A stretch of DNA of 64,000 bases, from contig JAADJD010000015.1 in NCBI GenBank assembly GCA_013150955.1, forward strand, positions 362-64,361, given 5' to 3'. Position 1 is the stretch's first letter; every line of letters starts with the position of its first letter. The notes beneath the pieces were generated by a model. That model was not told where the DNA came from. It ran no database searches and saw nothing but the letters and a program-made list of their open reading frames with translations. A program made the position numbers and the translations under genes. Of the stretch, positions 3,456-63,960 are shown one piece after another. Origin of the DNA: Calditrichota bacterium (GTDB lineage Bacteria; Calditrichota; Calditrichia; RBG-13-44-9; J042).

Positions 3456-3495
3456 TCACCCTCCTTCCCTCAGTGGAAGGGGGGTGATTTTTTTT
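3456..3495 (+). terminator. Rho-independent terminator after the VWA gene
   Basis: Stem TCACCCTCCTTCC / GGAAGGGGGGTGA with a 6-nt loop, followed by a T8 run. Confidence 0.75.
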
Positions 3496-3496
3496 A

Positions 3497-3819
3497 CCCG
3501 GATTTTGCATTTGCCCACGACTGACGCGAATCTACAGGAATACTAAACCCAGATTATGCAATAGCCTACGAATGACACGAATTACAACGAATAAAAATAA
3601 TAAACCCAGATTATGCATTAGAACCACGAATTGCACGAATGAACACCAACAAAAATTAAATTGCACTTGATTCTATCCGGATGAAAATGTTTTCCCGGAT
3701 ACATTCGCTATATTGTTGATGTTATTCGAATTCAATCGTATGATTCGCGGTTTATTGCATTATTTAGGTTTATTTGTGTTCATTCGCGTTATTGGTGGTT
3801 TAAAACGCAATTTGGGTTT
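3497..3819 (+). repeat. MITE-like palindromic element, locus 1 (composite: 3 left arms, core, 2 right arms)
   Basis: Left-arm-like segments start near 3497, 3546 and 3603. Core contains CCGGATGAAAATG. Right arms end near 3770 and 3819 (..GCATTATTTAGGTT, ..CGCAATTTGGGTTT). Confidence 0.9.
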
Positions 3820-4034: not shown

Positions 4035-5651
4035 ATGATTTTGAATCTGGCCTGGATGGATCTGGTGGTCATTTTCCTTTATTTTGCCATCATTTTTGCC
4101 ATTGGATTTTATTTTTCCAGGAAAGAAAAAACGTCGACCGACTACTTTCTTGCGGGACGGCATGTGGGGTGGTTTGCCATCGGAGCCTCTTTATTTGCGT
4201 CGAATATATCCAGCGAACATTTTATTGGTCTGGCGGGATCGGGAGCCGCGTCTGGCATGGCGGTGGGGCATTTCGAATGGCTGGCCAGCCTGATCCTGTT
4301 GATTCTGGGCTGGGTGTTCGTCCCCTTTTATCTTCGCTCCCGCGTGTTCACCATGCCCGAATTTCTGGAACGCCGTTACGGAAGCGCCAGTCGCTGGTAT
4401 CTGACCACGGTTTCCATTCTGGCCTATGTGTTGACCAAAATTTCGGTCACCCTGTTTGCCGGGGGATTGTTGCTGGAACAGGTGCTGGGTTGGGACATGT
4501 ACACCTCGGCGATCGTCATGGTGATTGCCACTGGCATTTACACCATTGCCGGCGGCCTGGGAGCGGTCATTTACACCGAACTTATTCAAACATTTGTGTT
4601 GATCGGTGGAGCGGTGGTGCTGACGGCCATTGGATTGCACGAGGTGGGGGGCATCTCGGGATTGCAGCAGGCGGTTCCCGCCGATTTTTTCCACATGTTC
4701 AAACCGATGGACGATCCCGATTTCCCCTGGACGGGCATCGTATTTGGGGCACCCATTCTGGGCATCTGGTACTGGTGCACCGATCAATTCATCGTTCAGC
4801 GGGTGCTGTCCGCAAAATCCATCGATCATGCCCGATCGGGAACCATTTTTGCCGGATTCTTAAAGATTCTGCCGGTATTTATTCTGGTGGTGCCCGGCAT
4901 TATTGCCCGCGCGCTTTACCCCGATATCACCGGCGATCAGGCCTATCCGGCCCTGGTCACCCGTCTGTTACCAGTTGGATTGAAAGGCATTGTGGTTGCC
5001 AGTCTGTTAGCGGCGTTGATGTCCTCCCTGGCTTCCTGCTTTAATAGCAGTTCCACCCTGTTTACCATGGATGTGTATAAAAAGTGGAGACCTGAGGCCA
5101 GCGAGCGTCAGCTGGTGCTGGTGGGACGCACCGCCACCACCGTACTGGTGGTTCTGGGAATATTGTGGGTACCCTTTATCAAGTACATTTCGTCCCAGCT
5201 GTATATTTACCTGCAGAGTGTTCAGGCTTATATCAGTCCCCCCATCGCAGCGGTGTTTTTACTCGGCGTTTTCTGGACGGGGGCAAACAGCAGGGGAGCC
5301 ATTGCCTCACTGTTAACCGGGCTTTTCTTTGGTGCCCTGCGGTTGATTCTGGAATTGATGCACAAGCAATCGCCGTTTGAATGGGAATTGCTGCGGTGGT
5401 TTGCTGAGGTGAACTTCCTGCATTTTGCGATTCTCCTTTTCATCGTTTGTACGCTGGTTCTGGTGCTGGTCAGCAAGTTGACCGGACCTCCTTCGCGCGA
5501 CAATGTGCAGGGCTTAACTTTCCGTTATGCCGATGAGGGTTCTTCCCCGCAGGCTTATGCCCACGAACATCCCCGATGGCGACGGGTAAATATAATCCTG
5601 AGCGGTCTGCTGATTCTGACCATGCTGACGTTGTGGTGGATATTCTTTTAA
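4035..5651 (+). CDS. Sodium:solute symporter (SSF/SGLT family)
   Basis: 538-aa polytopic membrane ORF with AGGAG RBS. Typical SSF N-terminus (DYFLAGR..WFAIGASLFASNISSEHFIGLAG) and about 13-14 hydrophobic segments. Confidence 0.85.
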   Translation: MILNLAWMDLVVIFLYFAIIFAIGFYFSRKEKTSTDYFLAGRHVGWFAIGASLFASNISSEHFIGLAGSGAASGMAVGHFEWLASLILLILGWVFVPFYLRSRVFTMPEFLERRYGSASRWYLTTVSILAYVLTKISVTLFAGGLLLEQVLGWDMYTSAIVMVIATGIYTIAGGLGAVIYTELIQTFVLIGGAVVLTAIGLHEVGGISGLQQAVPADFFHMFKPMDDPDFPWTGIVFGAPILGIWYWCTDQFIVQRVLSAKSIDHARSGTIFAGFLKILPVFILVVPGIIARALYPDITGDQAYPALVTRLLPVGLKGIVVASLLAALMSSLASCFNSSSTLFTMDVYKKWRPEASERQLVLVGRTATTVLVVLGILWVPFIKYISSQLYIYLQSVQAYISPPIAAVFLLGVFWTGANSRGAIASLLTGLFFGALRLILELMHKQSPFEWELLRWFAEVNFLHFAILLFIVCTLVLVLVSKLTGPPSRDNVQGLTFRYADEGSSPQAYAHEHPRWRRVNIILSGLLILTMLTLWWIFF

Positions 5652-5988
5652 CCCTCATGAATGCATTAGCCTACGAATGACACGAATTCACACAAATAAA
5701 ATAATCCCAGATTATGCATTAAAACCACGAATTACACGAATTAACACCAATAAAAATAATAGAATGCACTTGATTTTATCTGAATGAAAATGTTTTCCTG
5801 GATATATTCGCTATTTTATTGATTTTATTCGAATTCATTCGCGTGATTCGTGGTTTAACGCATTATTTGAGATAATCAATTCCACTTGATGATGTCTGAA
5901 TGAAAATTTGTTTCATGGCTTATTCGCGATTTTGTGGATATGGTTTGGTTGCATTCGCGTGATTCGTAGTTTAACGCATTATTTGGGA
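5651..5988 (+). repeat. MITE-like element, locus 2 (composite: L-L-core-R-core-R)
   Basis: Starts on the last base of the SSF TAA stop. Two left arms (5651-, 5705-), two cores (TCTGAATGAAAATG twice) and two right arms ending ..GCATTATTTGAG and ..GCATTATTTGGGA. Confidence 0.9.
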
Positions 5989-6110
5989 TAAATGCACAAA
6001 TTCTCCCGATTCCGCGTGAACCTCACCCTTCTTTACCCCGCATCTGGGCCCGGTTTTTCAATGCCAAGGTAAAGCTTCTCGATGTCTATGGAAAGTGTCC
6101 AGTGTTGTAA

Positions 6111-8374: not shown

Positions 8375-8535
8375 AACCCAGATTTTGCAATAGCCTACGA
8401 ATTACACGAATTATCGCGAACAAAAATGACATTTGATTTATCTGGATAAAAATGGGTTCCCGTTTTTATTAACTATATTGTTGATATTTTTCGGATTCAT
8501 TCGCGTGATTCGTGGTTTATTGTATGAAATGGGTT
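8375..8535 (+). repeat. MITE-like element, locus 3 (single copy)
   Basis: AACCCAGATTTTGCAATAGCCTACGAATTACACGAATT ... TCTGGATAAAAATG ... TTCATTCGCGTGATTCGTGGTTTATTGTATGAAATGGGTT. Confidence 0.9.
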
Positions 8536-10399: not shown

Positions 10400-11362
10400 A
10401 TGGTCTCTTCCGATTCTGACCGACACATTCGGCTGGGTGTATTACTCATGATGGCGCTGGCCGTTTTTCTGGCCGGATTTATTTTTTACATGGTGGGCTC
10501 CACCCAGCGGTTGTTCGATCGCAAATATTCCATTTACATGTTTCAACCCAATGTGGAAGGGCTACTGCCCGGGGCGTTCGTTACCCTGGCGGGATTGAAA
10601 ATCGGTGTGGTGGGCAATCTGGAATTTGCCGAAGTGGACGGGCAGCAGGGCATTCGGATTGAGCTGAAAGTGGATCGGGATTTTCAGGATCGCATCACCC
10701 GATCGTCTGTGGCGCGAATTAAAACCATGGGGATTCTGGGCGACAAGTATGTGGACATTTCCCTGGGTTACCTGAACGATCCCCCACTGGCCGAGGGCGA
10801 TTTCATTCAATCGGTGCCCCAGCTGGATACCGATCGATTGCTGGCGAAGGCTGCCCGCATTGTGGACGAACTGGAGGCCACCTCCCGGAATATCAAAATC
10901 ATTGCCGGGAATCTGGCGCAGGGTTCCGGTGCACTGGGGAAATTGTTGATGGATCCCACCATGGAAAGGCGGTTATCGACCGTGGTGCAGCGGTTGAATC
11001 TCCTGGCCGGTCAATTGGTGAGCGGAAAAGGCAACCTGGGCAAACTGGTGACCGATACCACTCTCTTTCGTACGCTTTCCAGGAGCTCCCGGTTGCTGGA
11101 AAAGATCCTGGCCGATCTTCAGGCCGGAAAGGGAACCGCCGGGAAGTTGCTGAAAGACGATGCCTTCTTTGCCCGGATCGATTCCATTTCCCGAAGAACG
11201 GATTCCCTTTTGATTCGTCTGCAGGGAGATGGCACGGCGGGACGATTGCTGAAGGACAGGGCTCTGTACGAACAGCTGGTCCAGCTAACCCGATCGCTGG
11301 ATGCGCTGGTGAAGGACATGAAAGCCAATCCCGGAAAGTATGTCACCTTCGAACTGTTTTAA
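10400..11362 (+). CDS. mlaD: MlaD/MCE-domain protein
   Basis: 320-aa ORF with an N-terminal TM helix, then an MCE-like domain and repeated coiled segments (GKGNLGKL/GKGTAGKLL). Third gene of the mla-type operon. Confidence 0.8.
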   Translation: MVSSDSDRHIRLGVLLMMALAVFLAGFIFYMVGSTQRLFDRKYSIYMFQPNVEGLLPGAFVTLAGLKIGVVGNLEFAEVDGQQGIRIELKVDRDFQDRITRSSVARIKTMGILGDKYVDISLGYLNDPPLAEGDFIQSVPQLDTDRLLAKAARIVDELEATSRNIKIIAGNLAQGSGALGKLLMDPTMERRLSTVVQRLNLLAGQLVSGKGNLGKLVTDTTLFRTLSRSSRLLEKILADLQAGKGTAGKLLKDDAFFARIDSISRRTDSLLIRLQGDGTAGRLLKDRALYEQLVQLTRSLDALVKDMKANPGKYVTFELF

Positions 11363-11583
11363 ACCCGGATTCTGTATAAGACCACGAATTGCACGAATTA
11401 ACACGAATAAAATCAATAAAATACGTTGGAATATATCTGGATGAAAATTCGTTTCGAGGTTTATTTGCGATTTTATTGATATGTTTTGGTTTCATTCGCG
11501 TGATTCGTGGTTTAACGAATTGTTTGGGTTAATATTTTTAGGATTCATTCGCATGATTCGTGGTTTGATGCATTATCTGGGTT
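11361..11583 (+). repeat. MITE-like element, locus 4 (full copy plus extra right arm)
   Basis: Begins inside the mlaD TAA stop (TTTTAAACCCGG). Three CACGAAT repeats in the left arm. Right arms end at 11530 and 11583. Confidence 0.9.
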
Positions 11584-11704
11584 AAACCCCATGCCCGGAT
11601 GGGATTGGCTTTACCGAATCCAGCCCGACTGATAAAACACTTGCCAAATCCCGTTTCCAAAAATATATTGCAAAATTGAGATACAGGAAAATTTGGAGAC
11701 GAAC

Positions 11705-21599: not shown

Positions 21600-21756
21600 G
21601 AATTACCGCATCAGTGGGTGCCAAATAGCGGTAGTCTGGCCATCCGATTCTTTCACCAATATTAAGACCACACTGGGTGAACCAGCTCATGTCTTTCATT
21701 CAGAAAAATTGTTGTTCAGGCAGGGTAAGTTTTACTGGATTGAAAATGGTGCATTA

Positions 21757-22078
21757 GCCCAGATTTTGCATTAACCAATACTGATACGAAGCCAAACGAA
21801 TAAGAAAGACTAAAAGCCATTTGATGATATCGGGATGAAAATGGGTGTCGGGATTTATTCGCTATTTTTTGGATATTTCCTGGATGAATTCGCTTAATTC
21901 GTGGCTTAATCCCAGATTAAGCAATAGCCTACGAATGACACGAATTAACAACAAATAAAACCAATAAAATCCATTGGATTGTGTCTGGATGAAAATGTGT
22001 TCCATAGTTTATTCGCGTTTTTATCGACATTTTTTGGTTTCATTCGCGTGATTCGCGATTTAATGCAAAATTTGGCTT
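21757..22078 (+). repeat. MITE-like element, locus 5 (two tandem copies; the first is degenerate)
   Basis: Copy a is about 21757-21908 (diverged arms, core CGGGATGAAAATG). Copy b is 21908-22078 (AATCCCAGATTAAGCAATAGCCTACGAATGACACGAATT ... TTTCATTCGCGTGATTCGCGATTTAATGC). Confidence 0.85.
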
Positions 22079-29637: not shown

Positions 29638-29962
29638 TCAAGCCGAAAGAGCTGTACTATTTCCCATAAATTGTATTCAGATTGTCAAACGACTCGCACG
29701 CTTTCCATGCGGAAACCCCTTTGATTTGCACGGGGGAGAATAGATGGCCTCCGAAAGAACTCGCCGATTCTGATCCAACTATGCAGGTTTGTTATTGGTG
29801 GATGATGCCATTCAGTACCAGGAGTGCCCTAAGGGAGACAAAAAGTTGCCAGTGGTTTTGAGCAGGTGGAGTTAGAAAAATACGCCAGGCAACAAAAAAT
29901 GTAAAACACAGGGCCATTTTGTTTCTTATATTTTCTGGTGGGTTGCGGGGTGGAGAGATTAT

Positions 29963-30110
29963 AAACCCAAATGATGCAATAGCCTACGAATGACACAAAT
30001 TAACACAAATAAAACCAATAAAATACATTGGATTGTGTCTGCATGAAAATGTGTTTCAGGGTTTTTTCGCGATTTTGAGGATATTTTTGGTTTCATTCGC
30101 GTGATTCGTG
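29963..30110 (+). repeat. MITE-like element, locus 6 (right arm truncated)
   Basis: Full left arm and core. The right arm stops after TTTCATTCGCGTGATTCGTG and lacks the ..GTTTAACGCATTATTTGGGTT terminus. About 90 bp further on lies the AT-rich islet. Confidence 0.9.
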
Positions 30111-30198
30111 AACGGGGATTCCGATACCAATAAACATACGACTATTCTACGCTTTGCCCAGATACCGATCAAAGTCGGGTCGTCACATATCCCTGAGA

Positions 30199-30221
30199 CC
30201 TTATACACCATATGTATAAGG
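30199..30221 (+). promoter_or_regulatory. 9-bp perfect inverted repeat (candidate operator) just upstream of the PIN gene RBS
   Basis: CCTTATACA-ccata-TGTATAAGG, ending at the GGGAG RBS of ATG 30233. Confidence 0.45.
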
Positions 30222-30232
30222 GAGATGAAAAA

Positions 30233-30679
30233 ATGAAAATATACTTGGACACCTCAGTTATATCTGCGCTGTTTGATGAAAGAAACCCGGAAAGAAAGTC
30301 ATTAACAGAAGAATTCTTCTCTGAAATAGAAATTTACACAACTTATATTTCCGAGCTTACGATCGCAGAGATAGACAGAACTCCTGATCCACTATTAAGA
30401 CGTAAAATGAAAGAAACAATTAGGAATTTTACGACTCTTGAAATAACCGAATCCACGGAGGAACTGGCAACGGAATATGTAAAATATGGAGCAATCCCTG
30501 AGTCTTATTTTGAGGATGCTTACCATATTGCAGTTTCCGTACTCAATGAAATGGATTATCTTTTAAGCTGGAATTATCGCCATATTGTGAGAAGAAAAAC
30601 CAAAGACATAGTGAGGATGGTGAACAGCTTAAGAAACTTAAAACAGGTTGAGATAATTACGCCGGGAGAATTATTATAA
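30233..30679 (+). CDS. PIN-domain protein (VapC-like putative toxin)
   Basis: 148 aa starting MKIYLDTSVI (first PIN acidic residue), later acidic positions (SELTIAE, FEDAYHIA) and LSWNYRHI. GGGAG RBS 8 nt before ATG 30233. Visibly AT-rich relative to flanks. Confidence 0.7.
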   Translation: MKIYLDTSVISALFDERNPERKSLTEEFFSEIEIYTTYISELTIAEIDRTPDPLLRRKMKETIRNFTTLEITESTEELATEYVKYGAIPESYFEDAYHIAVSVLNEMDYLLSWNYRHIVRRKTKDIVRMVNSLRNLKQVEIITPGELL

Positions 30680-37705: not shown

Positions 37706-37816
37706 TGCCCGATCCTTTGTCTGATCTTTTGAACATCAACAAGCCGAAATATAGTACGACAAACCGTAATTGACACGAAAAAAATCAGAATAGCAGGGGG
37801 CTACATTTGAAAATTT

Positions 37817-37994
37817 AACCCAGATTATGCATTAGACCACGAATTGCACGAATTAACACAAATAAAAATAATCAAATACATTAGATCAGATCTGGATGAA
37901 AATTCGAAAATTCGTTTCGAAGTTTATTCACGATATTATTGATATTTTTGGGTTTCATTCGCGTGATTCGCGGTTTAAGGCATTATTTGGGTTT
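37817..37994 (+). repeat. MITE-like element, locus 7 (cleanest single full copy, 178 bp)
   Basis: AACCCAGATTATGCATTAGACCACGAATTGCACGAATTAACAC ... TCTGGATGAAAAT ... GATATTTTTGGGTTTCATTCGCGTGATTCGCGGTTTAAGGCATTATTTGGGTTT. Confidence 0.95.
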
Positions 37995-38018
37995 AATTTA
38001 AAATCCAGGAGCCCGATC

Positions 38019-39718: not shown

Positions 39719-39867
39719 TTAACAGATTGATGTAAAGTGTTGATTTTGCGTGGGTTGTCGATTGTTTATTGTATCCTGTTGAAAATAATTAACTTAAACT
39801 CTGTTGCTGGTGGGGGAGGTGTTGAAAATACAATCAGGGTGTGGAAACGATTGTAAAAAGTGCAATT

Positions 39868-40171
39868 AAACCCGAATCATGCATTAAGCCGTAAATCCCG
39901 CGAACGAATAAACCCAGATTATTCTTTAGACCACGAATTGCACGAATTAACACAAATAAAAACAATAAAATCCATTGGATTAGATCTGGATGAATATTCG
40001 TTTCGAGGTCTTTTCATGATTTCATTGATATTTATTTGTTTCATTCGCGTGATTCGCGGTTTATTGCATTATTTGGGATAAAAACAAATCCACGAAATCG
40101 GGAATAACCCTCGAAAACCCATTTTCATCCAGTTATTTTCGTGTAATTCGTAGGCTATTGAAAAATCTGGG
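39868..40171. repeat. MITE-like element, locus 8 (extra left arm + full forward copy + partial inverted copy)
   Basis: Extra arm 39868-39909, full copy 39910-40077, reverse-oriented partial copy 40086-40171 (..CATTTTCATCCAG..ATTCGTAGGCTATTG..ATCTGGG). Confidence 0.9.
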
Positions 40172-40186
40172 AAAACGATTGTGAAA

Positions 40187-44542: not shown

Positions 44543-44775
44543 AGCCCGGATACTGCATTAAACCCAAATAATGTGTTAAACCGCGAATCACGCGAATGAA
44601 GCCAGAAAATATCTGCAAAATCGCGAATTAACCCTGGAACCCATTTTCATCCAGATATCATCCAATGGATTTTATTGTTTTTATTCGTTTTCATTCGTGT
44701 CATTCGTAGGCTAATGCATAATCTGGGGGGATTTGTGTTCATTCGAGTCATTCGTAGTATCATGCACAAACTGGG
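44543..44775 (-). repeat. MITE-like element, locus 9 (reverse orientation, extra arms)
   Basis: AACCCAAATAATGTGTTAAACCGCGAATCACGCGAATGAAGCC ... CATTTTCATCCAGA ... ATTCGTAGGCTAATGCATAATCTGGG, plus an additional arm ending at 44775. Confidence 0.9.
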
Positions 44776-44836
44776 ATAAAGCCAATCGGGGAAGTATTGG
44801 AACGGTGATGGTATCGAAGAAAGGGGATTGGTTGCG

Positions 44837-48536: not shown

Positions 48537-48629
48537 GAATCGCTCCCAAATCTTTCGGAAAAATATACCTGTTGGGAGTGAGTGAATCAAGATTTTTACA
48601 GATTGGATTAGTGCCCGAATCTCTGACAC

Positions 48630-48811
48630 CGATATCCCCTGCACTGCGGTGGGCTGGATTTTATCGAGCATCCGGGATCTACCCTTACCTTTAATAGATT
48701 GGATTGCTTCACCACCACTCATACCAGCTGTTTACTGCCCACTGCCAACTGCTTACTGCTTACTGTCAACTGCTTACTGCTTACTGCCAACTGCTCACTG
48801 CACACTGTTTT
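48630..48811 (+). repeat. Direct repeat copy A (98-bp unique part + 12 CTGYNNA heptads)
   Basis: 48630-48727 matches 50391-50488 with 3 mismatches by eye. 48728-48811 = CTGTTTA CTGCCCA CTGCCAA CTGCTTA CTGCTTA CTGTCAA CTGCTTA CTGCTTA CTGCCAA CTGCTCA CTGCACA CTGTTTT. Confidence 0.9.
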
Positions 48812-48864
48812 TTAAGAGTGCAATTGTGAATTCAGGAAGAAAAAAATCTTCCCAGAAAATATTC

Positions 48865-48899
48865 CTTGCAAATTTAAATCCTTTCTTTAAATTTGCAAG
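48865..48899 (+). promoter_or_regulatory. Perfect 14-bp inverted repeat abutting the ATPase start codon
   Basis: CTTGCAAATTTAAA-tcctttc-TTTAAATTTGCAAG, ending 1 nt before ATG 48901. Confidence 0.5.
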
Positions 48900-48900
48900 C

Positions 48901-50085
48901 ATGATTAGGCGCACGTTGGAAAATCGGGTTGTTGAATCTCTGCAACGATTTCCGATTGTGGGGATCATCGGGGCGCGACAGGTAGGGAAGACCACACTGG
49001 CTAAAAAGCTGCAGACCAGAGTGCCCAGAAGCATTTATCTGGATCTGGAACTCCCATCGGATTTGATCAAATTACAGGAACCTGAACTTTATCTGAGACA
49101 ACACGCTGATAAATTGGTTATCCTGGATGAAATTCAAAGAATGCCTGAGCTTTTTTCTTTATTACGTTCATTGGTAGATCAGGATAGACGTCCAGGCCGT
49201 TTTTTGCTCCTGGGTTCTTCGTCTCCGAAAGTGATAAAGGACGCCGCTGAAAGCCTGGCCGGACGCATTGTTTATCACGAACTATCCCCTTTTCTACTGG
49301 AGGAGATTGCCAGTGGCGAACCTCAAAAAGACTTTCAAAAATTGTGGCTGCGGGGCGGTTTTCCGGAAAGTTTTTTATCCCCCGATGAAACTACCAGTTT
49401 TCAATGGCGAGAGGCATTTATCCGTTCCTTCTTGGAGCGGGATTTACCTCTAATGGGAATCCGGATTCCGCCTTTGCGCATTCATCGTTTCTGGACTATG
49501 TTAGCCCACTATCACGGGCAACTTTTTAATGCATCTCAACTTTCGAATGCCCTGGATCTGTCATCCGTAACCGTAAAGAATTATCTGGAAATTTTGCATC
49601 AAGCGTTCATCGTTCGGGTGTTGTTGCCATTTCATGCTAATGTAAAAAAGCGGTTGGTAAAAACACCGAAAATGTATTTTCGGGATACGGGTTTACTCCA
49701 TTCATTATTAAATATCCGATCTTTTGAAGAATTACAATCCCACCCAATTGTAGGACACTCGTTTGAGGGTTTTGTTTTGGAACAGGTGATTCACAGCATA
49801 CCAGATTTTTTTGATGCTTTTTTTTACAGAACCGCGGCAGGAGCCGAGCTGGATTTGCTCCTGATTATGGGGAATCGGTGTCGGGTCGGGATAGAAGTAA
49901 AATATTCGCTGGCGCCCAGGATGAGCAAAAGTTTTCGGAATGCATTTGAGGACGTCCAGGTAAAATTGGGCCTTGTGGTTTACCCGGGGGAAGAAATATT
50001 CCCACTCGACAATGCGGTTTTTGCGTATCCAGTAACCCGATTGCCCCATCTCGTTGATTTTTTTCATGAACAAGGGGTGTTGTAA
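48901..50085 (+). CDS. AAA-family ATPase with DUF4143-like C-terminus (COG1373-type ATP-binding protein)
   Basis: 394 aa with Walker [10 protein letters not shown] and Walker B LVILDEIQ. The C-terminal half resembles DUF4143 proteins. ATG 48901 chosen; the ORF-track extension translates the heptad repeats. Confidence 0.75.
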
Positions 50086-50171: not shown

Positions 50172-50339
50172 AAACCTAAATAATGCACTAAACCGCGAAT
50201 CACGCAAATGAAACCGAAAAATATCTACAAAATCGCAAATAAACCCTGGAACACATTTTCACACAGACACAATCCAGTGTATTTTATTAGCTTTATTTGT
50301 GTGAATTCGTGTAATTCGTAGGCTATTGCATAATCTGGG
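50172..50339 (-). repeat. MITE-like element, locus 10 (single copy, reverse orientation)
   Basis: AAACCTAAATAATGCACTAAACCGCGAATCACGCAAATGAAACC ... ATTCGTGTAATTCGTAGGCTATTGCATAATCTGGG. Confidence 0.9.
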
Positions 50340-50390
50340 ATAAAAGATATACTTCCCCATCAACTGGATTTTTACCAAACTCCCCGACTT

Positions 50391-50537
50391 CGATATCCCC
50401 TACACCGCGGTGGGCTGGATTTTATCGAGCATCCGGGATCTATCCTTACCTTTAATAGATTGGATTGCTTCACCACCACTCATACCAGCTGTTTACTGCC
50501 CACTGCCAACTGCCAACTGCATACTGCCCACTGCAAA
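50391..50537 (+). repeat. Direct repeat copy B (98-bp unique part + 7 CTGYNNA heptads)
   Basis: 50489-50537 = CTGTTTA CTGCCCA CTGCCAA CTGCCAA CTGCATA CTGCCCA CTGCAAA. The upstream 98 bp is near-identical to copy A. Confidence 0.9.
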
Positions 50538-51200: not shown

Positions 51201-51320
51201 TTTGTCGGTGCCGATGGCAACGACGGGTTCCGGTGGAAATTGGCGATGGGGTTCATTCCACCGGGAACCTGCCTCTTGCCCTGAAACGCCGTCGGCAAAA
51301 CTGGCATGGAAAAATGATTT

Positions 51321-51671
51321 ATCCCAAATAATGCGTTACACCACGAATCGCGCGAATGAATTCGAAAAAAATCAACCCAAATAAAGCGTTAAACCACGAA
51401 TCACACGAATGAAACCAAAAAATATCTACAAAATCGCGAATAAACCCTTGAACACATTTTCATCCAGACACAATTCAATGTATTTTATTGGTTTTATTTG
51501 TGTTAATTCGTGTCATTCGTAGGCTATTGCTTAATCTGGGCGTAGGCTATTGCTTAATCTGGGATCAACAAAATAGTGAATATATCCAGGAAAACATTTT
51601 CATTCAGATATCATCCAGTGTATTTTTATTGGTGATTATTCGTGTCATTCGTAGGCGAATGCATAATCTGG
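51321..51671 (-). repeat. MITE-like element, locus 11 (reverse orientation; 2 right-type arms, full copy, 23-bp tandem duplication, extra partial copy)
   Basis: Arms at 51321- and 51373-. CGTAGGCTATTGCTTAATCTGGG duplicated in tandem (51518-51540, 51541-51563). Second core+arm at 51580-51671. Confidence 0.9.
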
Positions 51672-51717
51672 TATTAATGAAAAACAGGGAAAAGGCCAAC
51701 AGAGGAACCATATGCGG

Positions 51718-52347
51718 ATGATCTATTTACATGGTTTTGCTTCCGGTCCCGGCTCCACGAAAGGCCAGTATTTCCTGGAGCGGTTGGCAGCCGCTGGCAT
51801 TCAGCTGGAGATCCCCGATCTCACCGGCGGCGATTTTGAGCACACCACCATCACCCGCCAGCTGGATGCTGTCCAGCAGCTGCTGCAGTCGTGTGAAGAA
51901 GACGTCTGTTTAATCGGTTCCAGTCTGGGAGGCTGGTTAGCCACCCTGATTGCCGAAGAATTCTCCTGTGTGACGCGCATGGTTTTAATAGCCCCGGCAT
52001 TTCGTTTCGTCAGCCGACAGTCCCGCATTTTTGGAGAGGCCGCATTGGCAGAATGGAAGCGTCGCGGGTATTTGCCCGTGTATCACTATGGGACCCGCTC
52101 CACCCGACAATTACATTACCATTTTCTGGAAGATGCCCGGAAATATGAATCGATCGTTCCTCGCCGCAACATCCCCACCCTGGTTTTTCACGGCATTTAT
52201 GATGAATCGGTACCCTATTCGCTTAGCGTTGATTATCTGAAAACCAATCCACAGGCCCGGATCGTGCTGCTGGCATCCGACCACGGGATGACCGATCAGC
52301 TGGAGGTGATGTGGGAGATGATGGTCGCTTTTCTGAACCTTCGATAA
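51718..52347 (+). CDS. YqiA-like alpha/beta hydrolase (esterase)
   Basis: MIYLHGFASGPGSTKG N-terminus and nucleophile elbow GSSLGG; about 209 aa. The start could also be ATG 51712. Confidence 0.75.
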   Translation: MIYLHGFASGPGSTKGQYFLERLAAAGIQLEIPDLTGGDFEHTTITRQLDAVQQLLQSCEEDVCLIGSSLGGWLATLIAEEFSCVTRMVLIAPAFRFVSRQSRIFGEAALAEWKRRGYLPVYHYGTRSTRQLHYHFLEDARKYESIVPRRNIPTLVFHGIYDESVPYSLSVDYLKTNPQARIVLLASDHGMTDQLEVMWEMMVAFLNLR

Positions 52348-52408
52348 TCCCAGAAAATGCATTTAACCGCGAATCCCGCGAATGAACCCCGAAACGAATT
52401 TTCATCCA
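52346..52408 (-). repeat. MITE-like element, locus 12 (partial: one arm + part of core)
   Basis: AATCCCAGAAAATGCATTTAACCGCGAATCCCGCGAATGAACC..AATTTTCATCC. Begins within the esterase TAA stop. Confidence 0.75.
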
Positions 52409-54428: not shown

Positions 54429-54594
54429 GATTGTACCCCGCTTTTGATTCGGTTGTTACCTTCCTGTTGTTTTTTCATCAAATAAATTTTAAATAAAAGC
54501 AGTGGAAATTTCCACTTTAATCTGGATTTCTGTATCAGGGGTGCAGTGGCGGGGGGACAGAAATGTTTTATTTTTGCCCGGAACGGATCCCGTT

Positions 54595-54902
54595 AAACCC
54601 GGATTTCGCAATCGCTGTGTATTACACGAGTTCACACGAGAAATAATGGGATGAAAATGGGGTCCGGTGTTTACTCACTTTTTTGTTGATATTTTTGGAA
54701 TAAGTGCTTGTGATTTACGGTTTTTCATGCTTAAATCCAAATAATGCATTAAACCGCGAATCACACGAATGAAATCACAAAATATCTATAAAATCGCGGA
54801 TAAACCATAAAACACATTTTCATTCAGATATCACCCAATGGATTTTATTATTTTTATTCGTCTTAATTCGTGTAATTCGTAGGCGATTGCATAATATGGG
54901 TT
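54595..54902. repeat. MITE-like element, locus 13 (degenerate forward copy + intact reverse copy)
   Basis: Forward diverged copy 54595-54733. Reverse copy 54734-54902 (AATCCAAATAATGCATTAAACCGCGAATCACACGAATGAAATC ... ATTCGTAGGCGATTGCATAATATGGGTT). Confidence 0.85.
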
Positions 54903-62074: not shown

Positions 62075-62243
62075 GACCCAGATTATGCATTAGCCTACGA
62101 ATTACACGAATGAACACAAATAAAACCAATAAAATGCATTGGATTGTGTATGGATGAAAATGTGGTCCAGAGTTTATTGACGATTTTGTAGATATTTTTT
62201 GGTTTCATTCGCGTGATTCGTGGTTTAACGCATTATTTGAGTT
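62075..62243 (+). repeat. MITE-like element, locus 14 (single full copy)
   Basis: GACCCAGATTATGCATTAGCCTACGAATTACACGAATGAACAC ... TATGGATGAAAATG ... TTTCATTCGCGTGATTCGTGGTTTAACGCATTATTTGAGTT. Its last 2 nt lie in the TAA stop of the convergent gene. Confidence 0.95.
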
Positions 62244-63960
62244 AAAATTTTTCATCAGAAAATGTCGGAGACGGGGACTCTTCCAGTTGATCAATGAGTT
62301 CGCTAAGCAGAAATTCAATTTCTACCAGAAAACGTTCCGAGGCACAAATCCGTTTCTTGCACTGCTTGCAGGCGATGGTTAAATGGCAGTTTACCCGCTG
62401 TTTGTAATCCTGCTCCAGCTCCTGAATGGCCAGATTCATCTCTTCCTGAAAATCCAGCCGGGAGATGTGCGTGGGCAGCGAGGCCAGCCATTTGTGATGT
62501 AAAATTTCCACAAATTGTTTTAATCGTCCCAGATATTGCCCGACGGTGGAACGCCAGACCAACCGGGCCTTTCTCACCTGGGTGATGTAATCCGACGAAT
62601 CCGTCAGAAAGGTGTAACCGGCCTTTTCCACAACCTCGTCGGGTATTTTCATCAAAATGGTGATCATCTCGTAAATTTCTCGCAATTCTGCGGGATCACC
62701 GGCGGAGAGCTCCCGATACAAATCCTTTAATTTTCTTACATAAAACGATTCGATCCGCTGGAACAGCTTGCGCAGTTTCACCGATTCCTGCGGATTTTCC
62801 ATGGTATGGGCGTTAGTCTTCAGGAAATGTTCCGAAAGGAGGCGCGCTTCGTGAATGGTTTTTAAAGTGCTGCGCAGTTGTTGAATCTGGGGATACCCCA
62901 GAGAGTTGAAGATGATGTCCAGATAGGCATTGATGGAGGCTTCCATTTCCTGAAGTTGTTTGCGGGCATGTTCACTCAGAGTCATCAGCACGTTACCCAG
63001 CTGTTTTTGAAGTTGCTGGGAAGGATGATGTTTTAAAATCTGCACCGCCTTTTTCCCGATGGCCTGAGGAAAAGTGGCATCCGAGATTAGCGAAAGCACT
63101 TCTTCCAGGGTCAGGATTTGGTTCACCCGCTCCTGAATATCCGGATCGGGATCCAGATGCCCCTGCACCACCGCCAGAAAACGTCCCGGTTCACTGAGGT
63201 CGCCACTGCAATATTCCAGCAATTGCAGCTTCCGCTCGCGAATAAATCCCCGGAATTCCGCGTTTAATGCCTGTCCCTGAAAATCCAGGGATTGATCCAG
63301 AGAAGACAACACCGGTTGGGGCATTCGGAAATGGATGGCCAGTTGATCCAACACCTGCCACAGGCGATGGGCATTTCCCGACTGCACAATGGCTTCGGGG
63401 TCTGGCTGCATCAGATGGGCCTGGAAGATGTCGTAATCTATGCGATAAATGGCATTCAGGGCGCTCTGTTTGACCAGGTGATCCTCGTCCAGTAAATAAT
63501 TTAGAAGAATGGGGAGCTGTTTGTCGGGCGGGGTACTGGTGCTTAGCTGCAGAACCTGGGAAATCTTAAAAATGCGTTCCCGTTTGATTTGAATGTGCTG
63601 TTCCAGCATCTCCAGAATCAGATCATCACGGGGGCCAAAACCCCGTTTCAGCAGGTACTGGCGCAGGGTGTTCAGCATGGCGATCGAGATAGACGGATTG
63701 CGAAAGACGGCATCCAGCACGTCCAGATCGGATTCGAAAAAAATAAAGATTAACAGATTGGGCAACTGTTCTTTTTCGATGAATCGAATCTTATCGGCAC
63801 GGGACATATCCAGCAGGGATTTGTACTGTCCCAGGTATTTCCAGTATTCATGATTCTGGGCGGCTTCACGCACCCAGGGATCGATGTCGTCGGCCAGGGC
63901 TTCGATGATTTCGGGCGTGGTTTCTGTTTCCGCCACTTTAATGCGTTCATAAAACGGCAA
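62242..63960 (-). CDS. Hypothetical helical-repeat protein with C-terminal Cys cluster
   Basis: 572-aa ORF, predominantly helical/Leu-rich with no motif I recognise. C-terminal CHLTIACKQCKKRICASERF. The start at 63960 is close to the window edge. Confidence 0.5.
   Translation of the reverse strand: MPFYERIKVAETETTPEIIEALADDIDPWVREAAQNHEYWKYLGQYKSLLDMSRADKIRFIEKEQLPNLLIFIFFESDLDVLDAVFRNPSISIAMLNTLRQYLLKRGFGPRDDLILEMLEQHIQIKRERIFKISQVLQLSTSTPPDKQLPILLNYLLDEDHLVKQSALNAIYRIDYDIFQAHLMQPDPEAIVQSGNAHRLWQVLDQLAIHFRMPQPVLSSLDQSLDFQGQALNAEFRGFIRERKLQLLEYCSGDLSEPGRFLAVVQGHLDPDPDIQERVNQILTLEEVLSLISDATFPQAIGKKAVQILKHHPSQQLQKQLGNVLMTLSEHARKQLQEMEASINAYLDIIFNSLGYPQIQQLRSTLKTIHEARLLSEHFLKTNAHTMENPQESVKLRKLFQRIESFYVRKLKDLYRELSAGDPAELREIYEMITILMKIPDEVVEKAGYTFLTDSSDYITQVRKARLVWRSTVGQYLGRLKQFVEILHHKWLASLPTHISRLDFQEEMNLAIQELEQDYKQRVNCHLTIACKQCKKRICASERFLVEIEFLLSELIDQLEESPSPTFSDEKF

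Follow-up and report, generated by a model that had tools for sequence, protein, structure and literature searches.

A MITE-like repeat with IS1380-like ends and a GxxExxY-type hairpin in a Calditrichota genome

Between the genes of a Calditrichota bacterium the same hairpin-forming unit recurs at a spacing of a few kilobases, and this raises a question in three parts: Is the unit a mobile element, which enzyme would move it, and where does its interior come from? The window that we have analyzed, a stretch of 64 kb with a G+C content of ~49%, is ordinary in its content of envelope and housekeeping genes. These include genes for a VWA/T9SS protein, a sodium:solute symporter and an S9 peptidase, then mlaEFD, tamB, bamA, ompH, lpxD, lpxC-fabZ, lpxA, rseP, bacA, holA, acs, and hupB, together with an ECF sigma factor, an anti-sigma factor, and a sigma-54 two-component pair. 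In TamB identity the MAG WFTQ01 is closest among the genomes of the species collection (78%), followed by a Calditrichia MAG with 44%; the T9SS sorting domains are in keeping with an FCB-group host. No tRNA, Rfam family, or transposase lies within the 64 kb; as far as transposases are concerned, this agrees with the preliminary description of the locus, for the large ORFs that were scanned all encode housekeeping functions and tblastn with ISEcp1 transposase and GxxExxY queries found no match in the window.

Copies, ends, and target-site duplications

With the focal 178-nt copy as query, nhmmer recovered each of the 14 loci named in the preliminary description, with E-values from 1e-48 to 1e-4, and a profile built from 13 copies resolved them into 12 full copies, one 3'-truncated copy, and ~14 arm or partial fragments, with nothing outside these loci (table 1). 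The union of all repeat pieces amounts to 3,363 nt in 16 blocks, or 5.25% of the window, in accordance with the earlier estimate of ~3.3 kb and ~5%. In the same window the core block CTGGATGAAAAT, allowing at most one mismatch, occurs 20 times against 0.82 expected, and for each arm a repeat search clusters 10-17 copies. The element, ~165 nt in length (157-173 nt), has no ORF. Its full and truncated copies lie in both orientations (ten + and four -), and all are intergenic, none falling within a supported CDS, just as had been described.

Table 1. Coordinates of repeat copies, fragments, and associated features in the window (TSD, target-site duplication, given as left/right; model, positions in the repeat profile)
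Feature	Position	Strand	TSD	Remarks
Focal full copy	37819..37991	+	TTTAA/TTTAA	173 nt including an 8-nt internal duplication; nhmmer 170 bits; divergent intergenic region, 27 nt upstream of yhaM-like HD/OB-fold gene (start 38019)
Focal left TSD	37814..37818		TTTAA	identical to right TSD
Focal right TSD	37992..37996		TTTAA
Full copy, subfamily C	3605..3768	+		amid arm fragments 3492-3604 and 3765-3819; flanks not direct repeats
Full copy	5706..5871	+	ATAAT/ATAAT	within older + copy
Halves of older copy around 5706..5871	5646-5701, 5872-5994	+		model 5-59 and 60-182
Full copy	8377..8533	+	TTCAA/TTCAA	divergent intergenic region
Full copy	11364..11528	+	TTAAA/TTAAT	then right-arm fragment 11532-11589; left TSD holds stop codon of MlaD gene (10400-11362)
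Degenerate older copy	21752..21909	+		model 5-162; nhmmer 89 bits; directly abuts copy at 21911
Full copy	21911..22076	+	TTAAT/TTAAT	locus empty in relative L001
3'-truncated copy	29960..30111	+		model 5-157; adjoins PIN-domain gene
Full copy	39913..40077	+	ATAAA/ATAAA	within older - copy (39864-39908, 40082-40175)
Full copy	44563..44727	-		extra left-arm fragment 44731-44782
Full copy	50175..50339	-	ATAAA/ATAAA	TSD read on + strand
Full copy	51376..51540	-		between pieces of older - copy: 51315-51375 (model 123-183) and 51564-51677 (model 6-127)
Isolated right-arm fragment	52342..52394	-		nhmmer 28.5 bits
Degenerate copy	54593..54723	+		model 6-160
Full copy	54736..54900	-	TTAAA/TTAAA	46 nt upstream of ArsC-family gene
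Full copy	62077..62241	+	TTAGA/TTAAA	polymorphic, absent from contig L175; right TSD carries stop codon of - strand gene 62242-63960
Sigma-70-like match	37853-37882
Sigma-70-like match	51477-51506
Sigma-70-like match	50276-50305
Sigma-70-like match	54847-54876
Sigma-70-like match	44674-44703
Sigma-70-like match	3572-3601
Sigma-70-like match	5677-5705

The element proper starts CCCAGATTATGC and ends GCATTATTTGGG, with the termini CCCAGAT...ATTTGGG; read inward, the left end is CCCAGATTATGCATTAG and the right end CCCAAATAATGCGTTAA. The locus previously delimited as 37817-37994 is thus the right one, but its exact ends had been drawn too wide, as the element proper occupies 37819-37991 and TTTAA duplications lie outside it. 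Much the same applies to what had been called a 43-nt terminal inverted repeat: The imperfect inverted repeat is real, and its 33 identities over 43 positions were confirmed by hand, but it does not form a single unit, being composed of a transposon end of ~17 nt followed by an inner hairpin arm of 9-nt repeats.

Directly outside the terminal CCC/GGG there are 5-bp AT-rich direct repeats, which are perfect in seven of the 12 full copies, while the flanking 5-mers match at four or more of their five positions in nine. Two of the remaining copies differ at one base, and the three without repeats abut other element pieces, which is the reason why no direct repeats flank the copy at 3605..3768. 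When left and right flanks of different copies were cross-paired as a control, 10 of 132 pairs were perfect, giving a binomial P of 8e-6. The target pentamer has the form (T/A)T(A/T/C)A(A/T). Two copies, at 11362 and 62242, reach a stop codon via the target duplication only. Both insertions lie at TTAAA targets containing the stop codon of the adjacent gene (window 11360-11362 and 62242-62244); the stop is regenerated by the target duplication, so both reading frames are unchanged.

Column conservation is ~91% in the arms and 84% in the core, the inner arms being the best-kept part with 0.91-0.95 per column. The two left-arm subfamilies reported before are real, and clustering of the copies yields three subfamilies overall: the copies at 11362, 37817, and 39911; those at 3603, 5704, and 8375; and all others. 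Adjacent loci tend toward a common subfamily, as 3603, 5704, and 8375 exemplify. Orientation, too, comes in blocks, with ten + copies between 3.6 and 40 kb, four - copies at 44.5-54.9 kb, and one + copy at 62 kb, which makes three runs against ~6.7 expected by our own arithmetic. The switch of orientation coincides with a change in the predominant gene strand and a drop in GC skew from about +0.08 to about 0, so that the direction of replication may play a part, or else local hopping.

Insertion history in the window and its relatives

An identical HU protein is encoded in the window and on L175, a 2.9-kb contig from another sample (Logan SRR33939663), the DNA of which is 98.8% identical to that of the window over 659 aligned bases. 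This contig is missing exactly 170 nt, corresponding to the copy at 62077-62241 plus one 5-bp repeat: The empty site reads GTGAA-TTAAA-ATTT and the filled site of the window GTGAA-TTAGA-(element)-TTAAA-ATTT. Given the mutated duplication, the empty allele could be the product of precise excision rather than the state before insertion.

Comparison of orthologous intergenic regions, which the preliminary description had proposed, extends this picture to more distant relatives. In L170, L173, L174, L177, and L001, with proteins 65-86% identical to those of the window, there is no copy at the loci orthologous to those at 21.8, 37.8, 39.9, 44.6, 50.2, and 51.4 kb, and L001 is without either of the two copies at 21.8 kb. 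Two relatives reached via their yhaM-like and LiaF-like proteins (identities of 86/76% and 65/57%) have kept the gene order of window 27-51 kb, and the element profile, run at E up to 1, found no match in ~45 kb of their sequence. The spacer that holds the focal copy measures 313 nt in the window, and its counterparts in L170 and L173 measure 153 and 152 nt, respectively. An intergenic block at 39790-39863, situated between the two-component genes and of the pattern GTGTTGAAAATACAATC.GGG.GTG.AAA.GATTG.A.AAAGTGCAAT, is kept in the window, L170, and L173, and stops exactly where the element cluster of the window starts (39.86 kb); this block may be a regulatory site.

Other differences between the same genomes concern the neighborhood of the element. 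A PIN-domain gene (30212-30679) adjoins the truncated copy at 29960-30111, and in L173 only 145 nt separate the flanking bacA and SNF-transporter genes, the PIN gene and the element both being absent. Two direct repeats of 170 nt, 89% identical (window 48604-48773 and 50365-50534) and each ending in a heptamer array (CTGCYNA)n, flank an AAA_14/DUF4143 ATPase gene (48649-50085) and the MITE copy at 50175-50339. Since no ATPase gene is called between the same flanking genes in L173 and L177, where the spacers are 222 and 691 nt, this ATPase region looks like an insertion.

Three loci resolve as a copy that has entered an older copy at a 5-bp target. When the copy at 39913-40077 is removed together with one ATAAA, its flanks, which separately score 15 and 46 bits, join into one - element covering model positions 7-181 with 73 bits; the copy at 5706-5871 splits an older one exactly between model positions 59 and 60. 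Consequently, the loci that appeared as mosaics are insertions into AT-rich sites of older copies and, as pairwise identity among copies is 70-89%, most insertions are old. A related element occurs in MAG WFTQ01 (L164), with the same ends and arms, an unrelated loop of 220 nt, and an ATAAT/ATAAT duplication. It was the only finding of an outer-end pattern scan in the genome-contig collection, while the metagenome-contig collection returned nothing related.

The repeated copies, with their terminal inverted repeats and 5-bp duplications, the precise empty site, the nested insertions, and the presence restricted to one lineage are all directly observed and, combined with the lack of a transposase in the window, they bear out the original reading: The unit is very probably a bona fide MITE with 5-bp target-site duplications. 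It resembles classical MITEs (Correia, RUP, ERIC, Nezha, and TIMEs) in being small, non-coding, bounded by terminal inverted repeats, flanked by target duplications, intergenic, multi-copy, and capable of forming a hairpin, but its sequence is unrelated to theirs. A covariance scan of the window and 15 related loci against Rfam, with gathering and E-value thresholds, gave no hits, the best sub-threshold score being 29 bits versus a cut-off of 211; neither ERIC nor REP/BIME, Correia, RUP, or BOX was matched, as had been surmised, and blastn of one copy against a plasmid collection and a phage collection found no match. Unlike Correia and RUP, which derive from IS630 and duplicate TA, the window element duplicates 5 bp (WTWAW) and, unlike TIMEs, with ends GGGG...TAAG, it has ends of the form CCC....

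Transposon ends and the candidate transposase

How would a gene-less unit of this kind be moved? A 5-bp duplication beside an end starting with CC points to the IS1380 family, and we compared the ends, post hoc, with those of a single family member, ISEcp1. The left end of ISEcp1 occurs without mismatch (100% identity) in 3,644 plasmids, the annotated 'IS1380-like element ISEcp1 family transposase' lying 145 nt downstream of it. In pC15-1a the IRL reads TCATA followed by CCTAGATTCTACGTCAG, the end itself beginning CCTAGATT, and the IRR, read inward, is CCTAAATTCCACGTGTG. The left end of the window element matches this IRL at 12 of 17 positions; across the window, 6 of 127,968 background positions score that high in this post hoc comparison with one family member. 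Between the right end and the IRR there are only 9 identities over 17 positions. In both ISEcp1 and the window element, position 5 is G at the left end but A at the right end, targets are AT-rich, and the 5-bp duplication abuts an end of the form CC(T/C)AGATT, in our case CCCAGATT.

ISEcp1 is known to make 5-bp duplications (PMC2887853), and IS1380 members mobilize adjacent DNA via surrogate (right) ends, acquiring neighboring DNA in this way (PMC2887853, PMC9330008), and carry outward promoters (PMC9330008). Unlike ISEcp1, the window element has no transposase gene, is 165 nt long versus ~1.65 kb, contains a long hairpin without relation to ISEcp1 in its interior, and belongs to an uncultured bacterium of the FCB group. 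On balance, we favor an IS1380-family transposase of the ISEcp1 kind as the cognate enzyme; the family assignment is likely and not proven, because tblastn with the ISEcp1 transposase found none in the window and ~1.07 Mb of fetched loci, where autonomous elements bounded by such ends were not found either. As a DDE transposase with its gene outside the window, the enzyme would recognize the terminal inverted repeats of the ~165-bp MITE and insert it at an AT-rich pentamer, and the repair of the staggered cut would leave the 5-bp duplication. A eukaryotic relative of IS1380, piggyBac, duplicates exactly TTAA (4 bp); its possible likeness to the window element would lie in ends that begin CCC and a target centered on TTAA-like sequence, whereas the duplication in the window is of 5 bp. 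IS1380 has been used as an outgroup of piggyBac (PMC10813416).

Could the element instead be a miniature derivative of the Tn3 family, that is, a TIME, moved by a Tn3-type transposase that recognizes inverted repeats of ~40 nt and makes 5-bp AT-rich duplications? Inverted repeats of the Tn3 family begin GGGG and end TAAG, whereas the window ends begin CCCA; a comparison by hand with the Tn3 inverted repeat gave ~11 identities over 38 positions, which is at chance level, and no Tn3-like gene lies in the window. We consider this origin improbable, even if the Tn3 family has 38-bp inverted repeats and makes 5-bp duplications in AT-rich targets (PMC2887853, PMC4133298) and the conserved arm in the window is comparable in length, at ~43 nt.

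Inner arms, predicted fold, and the origin of the interior

Inward of the transposon ends, the inner arms (37836-37864 and 37948-37974, for example) consist of two or three 9-nt CACGAAT/CGCGAAT units and enclose an AT-rich loop of 85 nt; the two arms read CCTACGAATGACACGAATTAACACAAAT (left) and TTTCATTCGCGTGATTCGCGG (right). A 19-mer of the right arm, TTCATTCG(C/T)GTGATTCG(C/T)G, is found in at least 79 contigs against ~17 chance matches by our own estimate. These contigs belong to Verrucomicrobiota, Planctomycetota, Acidobacteriota, Gemmatimonadota, Kiritimatiellota, Calditrichia, and others, often with several per MAG, and in them the 19-mer is one arm of a hairpin built of two or three 9-nt units, such as GCCCGCGAATCACGCGAATGAACGCGAAT ... 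ATTCGCGTTCATTCGCGTGATTCGCGGGC. The sole protein family recurring beside these hairpins across genomes is GxxExxY (TIGR04256; Pfam PDDEXK_3, PF13366). Judged by sequence, the inner arm belongs to a cross-phylum hairpin family tied to GxxExxY genes.

In a sample of 80 GxxExxY genes from 80 genomes of many phyla, 73 have an arm within 130 nt, and in 31 the order is simply arm, gene, arm; within this distance of the gene there are 8.2 arms per kb, compared with 0.52 per kb elsewhere. Loops between paired arms are bimodal in length, either 0-200 nt or 370-490 nt, and all long loops hold the GxxExxY gene except one (338 nt, L076), while gene-less hairpins of the same type are scattered intergenically in the same phyla. 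The type of unit varies by genome (CACGAAT, CACGAAA, CACGGAA, CGCGAAT, and CGCAGAA), changing in concert in both arms. Proteins with a common arm unit type are slightly closer to each other, with a distance of 0.370 versus 0.395 that is significant by permutation but confounded by host relatedness. No target duplications were seen around the hairpins of other phyla, with or without the gene.

The window copies, with their 85-nt loop devoid of an ORF, represent the gene-less form, and their left arm is very similar to that of a GxxExxY gene from Calditrichota (L149). A decayed GxxExxY gene was considered for the loop and rejected, since profile search and six-frame reading show no similarity. 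The GxxExxY protein is modeled with confidence (pLDDT 88) and, among solved structures, comes closest in fold to Cas4 SSO0001, lambda exonuclease, and RecE; the D-ExK and QxxxY motifs are intact. The family comprises 13,088 clusters at 50% identity (E up to 0.001), and its function is given as unknown in a table of Steczkiewicz et al. Literature searches with GxxExxY, PDDEXK_3, TIGR04256, and the arm sequences found no paper describing the hairpin family, and no Rfam family for it was found.

Two side observations bear on the organization of these cassettes. About ten Opitutales genomes (L087, L088, L105, L109, L121, L123, L125, L128, L132, and L150) have a GxxExxY cassette at the same place, between the gene for an ABC-transporter ATPase and the following permease gene, and the unit type differs by genome (CACGAAA, CGCGAAT, CACCAAA), both arms having changed together. 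At some loci of Planctomycetota and Verrucomicrobiota, tandem arrays of three to four near-identical gene-less hairpins with a period of ~100-200 nt lie beside a GxxExxY gene (L091, 2920-3290; L086, 3070-3510; L096, 1850-3200).

Hairpins of this kind recall REP, BIME, and REPIN sequences, which are likewise intergenic and hairpin-forming; several window loci are mosaic clusters of arms, and REPs flank RAYT genes much as the inner-arm family surrounds a small nuclease gene in other genomes. The difference is that REPINs leave the target unduplicated and rely on an enzyme of the Y1 (IS200-like) kind, whereas here a PD-(D/E)XK nuclease is linked and 5-bp duplications lie at the outer ends. Membership of the window element among REPs or REPINs is contradicted by these duplications and by the lack of an IS200-like gene in the window. 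One might still suppose that the functional ends are the inner CACGAAT-repeat arms, that a GxxExxY nuclease encoded elsewhere spreads the element as a REPIN-like repeat, and that the outer CCCAGATT is incidental: The inner arms are after all the best-conserved part of the element, the same arm type accompanies nearly all GxxExxY genes sampled, and gene-less hairpins are dispersed in the same phyla. This is hardly probable, for the duplications and the breakpoints of the empty site abut the outer CCC/GGG and not the inner arms, the hairpins elsewhere lack flanking duplications, and the window has no GxxExxY gene.

The arms need not be inert in a transposon with outer functional ends. An IS1380-like end lies just outside a 9-nt-repeat arm in the window, in L164, and at the end of an acidobacterial contig (L077/L034); as this pairing of end and arm recurs in two phyla, the arms may contribute to transposition rather than being mere cargo. 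Quite tentatively, the inner arms might be seen as a module of 9-nt C(A/G)CG(A/G)A(A/T) units with gene-carrying and gene-less forms, either a selfish system of the REPIN/RAYT type run by a RecB/Cas4-like PD-(D/E)XK nuclease or a cassette boundary acting at the RNA level, and the MITE of the window as a chimera that arose when a transposon of the IS1380 type appropriated the hairpin.

The preliminary description had also predicted that a transcribed copy would form a long hairpin and, in silico, it does so with -51.7 and -42.7 kcal/mol for the two strands and z values of about -5.5 relative to shuffles. Compensatory change is seen in only 3 of 36 predicted pairs, and G-U pairs slightly favor the + strand; as A-C mismatches are G-U on the other strand, RNA and DNA are not told apart in this way. 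A weak sigma-70-like match (TTAACA/ATGACA, 18 nt, TACATT/AATAAT), which is a match to the consensus only, recurs in the left arm and points into the element (table 1), recalling the outward promoter of IS1380 members. With regard to neighboring genes, the copies show no clear bias of orientation, five lying with and three against the genes in co-directional spacers, and any effects on these genes are putative. That the repeats are host-selected RNA or DNA signals (terminators, insulators, sRNAs, or binding arrays like REP/BIME) and not mobile at all is very improbable in the face of target duplications, the empty site, nested copies, absence from orthologous sites in relatives, inconsistent orientation to genes, few compensatory pairs, and no Rfam match, even if both strands fold far better than shuffles and the copies lie only between genes, often just after terminators or before start codons, with their recurrent promoter-like match; individual copies may nevertheless have been co-opted as such signals.

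The unit is best explained, with good probability, as a non-autonomous MITE, likely of IS1380 type, that carries a hairpin of the GxxExxY type. Its interior is a gene-less hairpin rather than coding sequence derived from a transposon, and such a hairpin would have been captured between two IS1380-type ends and then amplified. This is the simplest origin because IS1380 members mobilize neighboring DNA via surrogate right ends; we infer both the transposase family and the capture from the comparisons above. A MITE with IS1380-like ends is ordinary in kind, and the association between GxxExxY genes and hairpins is the more unusual result.

For the organism, the element accounts for 5% of a region of housekeeping genes, among them lpx, bam/tam, and mla, and its exact boundaries and target rule are now defined. 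Gene spacing and some 5' leaders have been remodeled recently enough to differ between strains, as exemplified by the yhaM-like gene that now lies 27 nt from a hairpin element of 173 nt. With the profile, the repeat can be masked and its copies counted in this uncultured lineage of the FCB group, where such repeats break assemblies. If the hairpins and the GxxExxY nuclease form a mobile system, they would constitute a second pair of hairpin repeat and nuclease besides REPIN/RAYT, and would provide a testable function for the GxxExxY/PDDEXK_3 family.
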